A DNA stretch of 64,000 nucleotides from the sequence record OR757454.1. One strand, written 5' to 3'. Below, one piece after another: positions 17,691 through 18,137 of the stretch. Each line of letters opens with the position of its first letter. Position 1 is the first letter of the stretch. Origin of the DNA: Escherichia phage BYEP02. The position numbers were made by a program, and so were the translations under genes. The notes below the pieces were generated by a model. The model searched no databases, was not told the DNA's origin, and worked only from the letters and a program-made list of their open reading frames with translations.

Positions 17691-17766
17691 GCAAACGTGA
17701 AATGGTTGAAAGTCATTGGTATAAAATAGATGAAGTAACAACCCTTACGGAATCAGTATATAAAAA
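17611..17766. repeat. 77-bp direct tandem duplication at frd 3' end
   Basis: identity run 17613-17687 vs 17690-17764; 1-2 mismatches at unit edge; frd stop sits on the junction. Confidence 0.85.
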
Positions 17767-18137
17767 TGAAATACCGCGGGGTGGAAAATATGAATTTTAA
17801 TTATTACCCTATTCTATTAGAAAAAGACACGAAACAGCCAAAATGGCAAGGTCCTCAGTTTATTAAAGGTGTCTATCAATTAGTAGTTCCTAAAGACAAG
17901 ATTTATAGCAGTTGTTTCACTGAATCCGCTTGCAGTATTTTCGGTAATAGTTCTCCGTATTGGAATTTTGACATAAAGCTGGATAGAAATATCGATATTT
18001 GGTTGAAAGCTATGGATATTGGTAATATTACGTTTGATAAGAATAATTATCATATTATTGGTCGCTTTTCCAAACGTGGTAAAGAATTATATTTCACGCC
18101 TGAAATTGAGAGAAAATTTGATGCTAAACCGTATTGA
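17766..18137 (+). CDS. hypothetical protein inserted between frd and td
   Basis: 123-aa ORF (or 115 aa from ATG 17790); no counterpart recalled at T4 frd/td junction. Confidence 0.45.

Follow-up and report, generated by a model that had tools for sequence, protein, structure and literature searches.

Between the dihydrofolate reductase gene frd and the thymidylate synthase gene td of Escherichia phage BYEP02 (sequence record OR757454.1) lies an open reading frame (ORF) of 123 residues, which runs from ATG to TGA at 17766–18137 on the plus strand in the ORF list of the window, that is, of the whole 64,000-nucleotide stretch analyzed here. The ORF is not new. It is td.1, a gene already catalogued, which hundreds of T-even genomes list as hypothetical. 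The explanation that we favor overall, with a probability of about 0.5, is that td.1 is ancestral to its place between frd and td, was lost in T4, and encodes an OB-like binding protein linked to nucleotide metabolism. The genomic part of this explanation, a real, known, syntenic and non-mobile gene that T4 has lost, is held with high confidence. The frame is flanked by frd on one side (end near 17690/17800) and by td on the other (18183–19043), and comprises the following elements.

17766 to 17789, plus strand: in-frame upstream extension MKYRGVEN, which gives the 123-residue version; not conserved

17778 to 17785, plus strand: Shine-Dalgarno-like GGGGTGGA, 4 nt 5' of the ATG at 17790; called from sequence pattern only

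17790 to 18137, plus strand: conserved form of td.1, 115 residues plus stop, beginning MNFNYY; matches slur03, T2H and PHROG 1928

The original prediction gave the product 115 to 123 residues. The open frame is there, but the start that yields 123 residues is not conserved, and the conserved start at 17790 yields 115. In all annotated records that we compared, td.1 begins at the ATG equivalent to 17790. The upstream ATG of phages T2H and FriedrichMiescher runs straight into a stop (ATGAAATAA), and the additional eight residues are open only in the allele of the type found in Escherichia phage slur03, the closest genome. Relative to T2H, the window allele differs upstream by two extra A, which open the in-frame upstream ATG. 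The counterpart of the Shine-Dalgarno-like element in T2H is GGCGGA, at the same place. The window gene is 100% identical to the slur03 coding sequence (CDS) YP_009625018.1, and the T2H protein (ABI48932.1) shares 98% identity with that of the window. The codon changes between the window and T2H amount to 13 synonymous versus 2 non-synonymous, with 13 of the 15 substitutions at third codon positions. Far from lacking a coding signal, the frame is conserved across phages and its changes with respect to T2H are mostly synonymous; td.1 is a real gene under purifying selection. The tblastn homologues, the synonymous bias and the confident predicted fold described below all bear out a genuine ORF at the frd/td junction.

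The junction in T4 was next compared with those that carry the gene. In T4, frd and td share 4 nt (ATGA; 8110–8113 of the T4 locus) and have nothing between them, which confirms both the overlapping stop and start that the original prediction gave for T4 and the absence of the ORF from it; no T4 orthologue of known function occupies the position. Where the original prediction fails is in having called the ORF extra and inserted, as its homologues share the slot in ten distant loci and the T4 junction fits a deletion. In T2H the indel is bounded by a 9-nt direct repeat, TAAATGAAA, at 12–20 and 429–437 of the T2H locus. Removal of the 417 bp between the two copies gives the T4 junction, apart from single-base differences, and for this reason we read the difference as a deletion in T4. 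The corresponding boundaries of the indel in the window, with respect to T4, are as follows.

17764 to 17771, plus strand: left direct repeat AAATGAAA (TAAATGAAA in T2H)

18181 to 18188, plus strand: right direct repeat, which contains the td start codon

These repeats are frd-stop and start-codon context, and fit a microhomology-mediated deletion rather than a target-site duplication. The simplest reading is that td.1 is ancestral to the frd–td slot and would have been lost in the T4 lineage by such a deletion. Neither a transposase or integrase domain nor an inverted repeat bounding the unit was found, as might be looked for in a transposon-like insertion. Within Tequatrovirus td.1 is polymorphic, in a pattern that fits a single deletion allele. 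The earlier description of the ORF as a candidate accessory gene, at a junction of a kind prone to mobile or accessory ORFs, thus survives in part: td.1 is accessory and T4 does not have it, but the gene is neither inserted nor mobile, given that it holds the same slot across genera. The textbook overlap of frd and td in T4 would accordingly be a derived deletion allele, which would correct a T4-centered view of this region.

The conservation of position was assessed in ten distant loci, from nine phages and one uncultured T4-like contig. The phages are Enterobacter vB_ECC_MY742 (unclassified), Edwardsiella PEi26 (Kanagawavirus), Klebsiella Mineola (Jiaodavirus), Erwinia Cronus (Roskildevirus), Salmonella STML-198 (Gelderlandvirus), Klebsiella Potts1 (Marfavirus), Citrobacter Moon (Moonvirus), Serratia CHI14 (Winklervirus) and Escherichia EcS1 (Kagamiyamavirus). 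All ten have a td.1 homologue in the interval from frd to td, encoded on the strand of these two genes, and the gene has the same orientation and slot in slur03, FriedrichMiescher and T2H. Nine of the ten homologues come immediately after frd and overlap its stop by 1–23 nt; in Erwinia phage Cronus a 144-residue paralogue separates frd from the td.1 homologue, the long copy coming first. In most genera the td.1 frame overlaps frd upstream and td or the paralogue downstream. The Td.1 of the uncultured contig is 63% identical to that of the window. In the proteins compared with those of the window, identity is 29–48% for Td.1, 45–55% for Frd and 71–81% for Td, and the divergence of Td.1 roughly follows that of Frd.

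Nine of the ten distant loci hold a second ORF of 113–144 residues in the same slot. These second ORFs are Td.1 paralogues by profile search (E 2e-15 to 3e-4), with a profile for which 27 of the 28 rows came from short-form members. Their coordinates, in the numbering of each locus, are given below.

L005, 2317 to 2676: long-form paralogue

L006, 2317 to 2673: long-form paralogue

L008, 1559 to 1993: long-form paralogue

L009, 2309 to 2656: long-form paralogue

L010 (Potts1), 2290 to 2643: long-form paralogue

L011, 2287 to 2634: long-form paralogue

L012, 2314 to 2688: long-form paralogue

L013, 2314 to 2685: long-form paralogue

L014, 4332 to 4673: long-form paralogue

One of them, ORF254 of EcS1, is exactly the member P0036 of our library search. 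The long form (EcS1 ORF254 and the second ORFs of CHI14, Moon and Potts1) shares with Td.1 the C-terminal hairpin motif IGRFxKxGxxxxFxP, the conserved W, the GxY and the locus itself. It differs by an insert of 15–40 residues after the conserved Trp (WPL...PTIxEY..NP), and neither the window nor the other Tequatrovirus loci compared (slur03, FriedrichMiescher and T2H) have it. The tandem pair is the common state of the frd–td slot, of which the Tequatrovirus loci compared keep one member and T4 none; the pair itself would be ancestral across T4-like genera. The gene at the frd position of Potts1 (1388–1993) is labelled "single stranded DNA-binding protein", likely a mis-annotation; it falls in the span matched by T4 Frd in related Marfavirus records.

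The name td.1 is given in the T2H record AY262132.2, and RB14 and RB51 call the gene RB32ORF229c. The protein matches PHROG 1928 (function unknown) at E 4.2e-35 over residues 12–119 of the 123-residue form. The three entries share the 115-residue length and the position between frd and td; all are "hypothetical protein", and membership assigns no function. A tblastn search returned 580 phage records, of which 362 reach at least 90% identity and the other 218 stay below 60%. The former are Tequatrovirus-type phages of Escherichia, Shigella, Yersinia, Salmonella and Citrobacter. Set against some 548 records with a Frd at least 80% identical to that of T4, the 362 td.1-positive records amount to roughly two thirds, and the presence of the gene is indeed variable among close relatives. 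Among 1.84 billion representatives, a full HMMER scan delimited the family as 40 clusters of 37–139 residues with no fusions, and a word-indexed protein search found 3, then 10, proteins. A profile search of all six-frame ORFs found no second copy of td.1 in the window. Shigella phage SF2-1 (PQ571308.1) has td.1 labelled "glucose-1-phosphate adenylyltransferase", which is likely a mis-annotation.

Td.1 is a single-domain protein of 13.7 kDa, mildly basic with a pI of 9.0, and most family members fall between 7.7 and 9.5. Only W19, G91, K95 and G97 are invariant across 44 family sequences, while Q16, G27, Y29, F93 and F102 are nearly so. When 13 homologues with identities as low as 27% are aligned, the invariant residues are Q16, W19, G27, G91, F93, K95, G97 and P104. 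The 44-sequence alignment has no invariant acidic, His, Asn or Cys residue, and this lack of a conserved residue of catalytic type argues against an enzyme. The AlphaFold2 model had a predicted local distance difference test score (pLDDT) of 78 with 11 sequences; with 44 sequences the pLDDT was 91.3 and the predicted template modeling score (pTM) 0.84. The predicted elements are strands at residues 6–12, 27–34, 38–40, 48–50, 62–64, 80–82, 86–96 and 99–104 and a helix at 68–76. Their order, β1-β2-β3-α-β4-β5, matches the OB layout, and the OB-fold nucleic-acid-binding domains (HIN, RPA/Teb1, S1, SSB and CST) were considered among the nearest known systems. The model is therefore described as OB-like by element order, not assigned to the OB fold class. 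Td.1 had no match in Pfam (E up to 1), NCBIfam or PADLOC. Scanned against Pfam, the 44 family members had only scattered single matches, at E >0.01, and no PDB sequence scored below E 0.1 against either Td.1 alone or the 44-sequence profile. Foldseek against BFVD matched only uncharacterized T4-like phage proteins. The remark that the protein bears no recognizable motif is hence upheld, and the structure prediction proposed along with it gave a confident model with no relative of solved fold by sequence.

Based on these properties, we propose that Td.1 would be dispensable and non-enzymatic, a binding protein whose synthesis accompanies that of Frd and Td, and that its conserved aromatic and basic residues would bind single-stranded nucleic acid or a protein partner in nucleotide or DNA metabolism. 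That Td.1 is a non-catalytic binder of some kind we regard as somewhat favored; that its target is specifically nucleic acid or a metabolism-linked partner is a tentative suggestion. Several observations weigh against the proposal. Td.1 diverges faster than the flanking Frd and Td, a pattern that also fits a gene of host interaction or of an arms race. In phages with a Frd about 59% identical to that of T4 (for example APCEc01 and AV111, among the rows sampled) frd apparently adjoins td, as it does in T4, and therefore Td.1 is not needed for Frd or Td function. The net charge of Td.1 is only mildly positive and some of the paralogues are acidic. No nucleic-acid-binding or other family was detected for it by sequence or profile. 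A literature search on td.1, RB32ORF229c and PHROG 1928 found no paper that discusses the gene; Wilson and Edgell 2009 (PMC2790892) cite the T2H record and never mention td.1.

An anti-defense or host-takeover function was also considered, as the original prediction had suggested. Td.1 would be a small early protein that neutralizes a host factor, such as an immune effector or a nucleotide-depleting enzyme, and the gene would be kept or lost according to the hosts met by each lineage. We judge this possibility nearly as likely as the version with a nucleic-acid or metabolic partner. It would account for the variable presence in close relatives (about 362 td.1-positive among about 548 records with a T4-like Frd), the dispensability of a gene that T4 does without, the evolution of Td.1 at a faster pace than the flanking enzymes, the strongly diverged tandem paralogues that arose by duplication, and the small single domain with no enzymatic signature. 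Small T-even early ORFs of this type have in several cases proved to be counter-defense factors, which bears on this possibility as a prior only. Yet no similarity to a characterized anti-defense protein was found, in searches that did not include an anti-defense profile library (PADLOC, whose models are of defense and not of counter-defense, had no match), nor was any experimental link in the searchable literature, and the strict position with overlapping frames in at least ten lineages is unlike patchy counter-defense cargo. A role as accessory subunit or regulator of the Frd/Td pair, or of the dNTP-synthesizing enzyme complex, appears unlikely. Such a protein would be made alongside these enzymes, as is suggested by the frame overlaps that most genera show, with frd upstream and with either td or the paralogue downstream, and the gene is always inside the frd–td–nrdA block. 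However, frd directly abuts td in T4 and several other lineages, and the T4 enzymes work without Td.1; the sequence divergence of Td.1 is far above that of its supposed partners, and domain evidence for such a role is nil.

It is highly improbable that Td.1 is a mobile insertion, whether a free-standing homing endonuclease, as implied by the label "putative homing endonuclease" in the BASEL phages FriedrichMiescher, AndreasVesalius, FelixPlatter, WilhelmHis and AdolfPortmann, or one of another kind. The presence/absence polymorphism between conserved genes, the direct repeats of 8–9 nt that flank the indel, and the location in a region already known as a hotspot of homing (the T4 td intron carries I-TevI) would all be in keeping with it. 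Indeed, Td.1 resembles the Seg/Mob homing endonucleases of T4 (such as MobE) and I-TevI in being a small polymorphic ORF between conserved genes of the same neighborhood. It differs from them in having no nuclease motif or profile similarity and in a position conserved across genera. We reject the assignment, as no GIY-YIG, HNH, LAGLIDADG, His-Cys box, PD-(D/E)xK, EDxHD or other nuclease family was found (Pfam E up to 1; 44 members). An hhalign comparison with T4 MobE gave a probability of 0.1%, no His, Asp, Glu, Asn or Cys is invariant, and no nuclease fold was among the confident structural matches. Occupation of one and the same slot by the gene in at least ten lineages, accompanied by a tandem paralogue, is also unlike sporadic mobile ORFs. 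The BASEL label is probably positional, since the BASEL methods (PMC8594841) describe comparative annotation and recognize such ORFs in a comparative-genomics setting. A chance frame or an artifact of a flawed assembly is the least credible explanation of all. The window is AT-rich and holds 31 artifactual duplications of 77 nt, one of which ends 3 nt before the reported start. The frame is nevertheless outside this duplication and is identical in the slur03 record, from which the duplication is absent. The third-position substitutions, the homologues down to 27% identity, the 580 tblastn records and the confident fold refute a chance ORF.

Further points are of note. Neither sequence nor structure supports the "putative homing endonuclease" label that is spreading from the BASEL genomes. 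Td.1 is a compact and well-predicted family without detectable relatives in Pfam or PDB, and may turn out to hold a new small binding fold or a counter-defense factor. The protein is readily testable, as T2 and T6 are natural carriers and T4 is a natural knockout.

The frd gene immediately upstream is misrepresented in the window, as a consequence of one of the 77-nt duplications.

17109 to 17800, plus strand: frd (dihydrofolate reductase), broken by the 77-nt duplication; its true C-terminus overlaps the td.1 start

17610 to 17763: tandem pair of 77-nt units over the frd 3' end, identical at 76/77 bases (99%)

The slur03 genome is 99% identical to the window over 17000–18700 and is without the duplication, as was checked at the frd 3' end. 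Its match to this interval comes as two pieces, spanning 77 nt less, and the other relatives listed likewise match in two pieces, over a record span that falls 77 nt short of the query. The td.1 ORF is wholly outside the duplication, which ends 3 nt before 17766. In all, the window has 31 two-copy tandem arrays of period 77, spread from 4325 to 63465 and mostly 97–100% identical; they include 17610–17763, 20013–20166 and 21571–21724. Two of the 31 frameshift nrdA and one doubles the frd 3' end. Because all are exactly 77 nt long and several disrupt essential genes, we infer that they are best explained as untrimmed k=77 overlaps of an assembly graph. The apparent frd stop at 17690 is therefore artificial, and gene models across the whole window need to be checked against a clean reference. 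The window ORFs 17082–17690 and 17687–17800 hold the duplicated frd C-terminus. The slur03 frd CDS is 615 nt long and is annotated through the position that matches 17800 of the window, with an 11-nt overlap with td.1. A start of frd at 17109 is likely, as ATGATTAAATTG there fits the 615-nt slur03 CDS plus the 77-nt duplication. The slur03-type allele, that of the window included (17760–17800; 3190–3224 of the slur03 locus), has two extra A, reading TATAAAAATGA where T4, T2H and the BASEL phages read TATAAATGA. With these two bases the T4-type frd stop is gone, Frd is 11 residues longer, and frd overlaps the start of td.1.

Downstream of td.1, the following features were noted.

18183 to 19043, plus strand: td (thymidylate synthase), intron-less allele, 286 residues; annotated so in relatives

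18138 to 18182, plus strand: td.1–td spacer of 45 nt with promoter-like elements, read from the sequence and a consensus scan

18134 to 18163, plus strand: σ70-like TTGATT-N18-TATTAT, whose first hexamer begins 4 nt before the spacer, inside the end of td.1

18141 to 18150, plus strand: MotA-box-like TTTAGCTTCA, a pattern match

18161 to 18166, plus strand: TATAAT, 3' of the MotA-box-like element, a pattern match

The spacer hardly differs among the window, slur03, FriedrichMiescher and T2H, and its elements may constitute a putative (middle) promoter that serves td. The σ70 consensus scan returned sites no more numerous than expected by chance. The td gene of other phages carries the intron with I-TevI, and td.1 and this intron occur together in 79 records, T6 and RB10 among them, by which a strict mutual exclusion of the two is ruled out. 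By rough counts, uncorrected for phylogeny, td.1 is present in about 79 of 205 intron-bearing and about 283 of 343 intron-less records, hence rarer with the intron. A td.1-less deletion allele that spread with I-TevI co-conversion would fit these counts, which we take as a hint. Between td and nrdA, in the same operon, are two small ORFs, nrdA.2 (19040–19303; DUF5496, E 6e-55) and nrdA.1 (19257–19583; DUF4326, E 6e-22), both of which belong to conserved families of unknown function.
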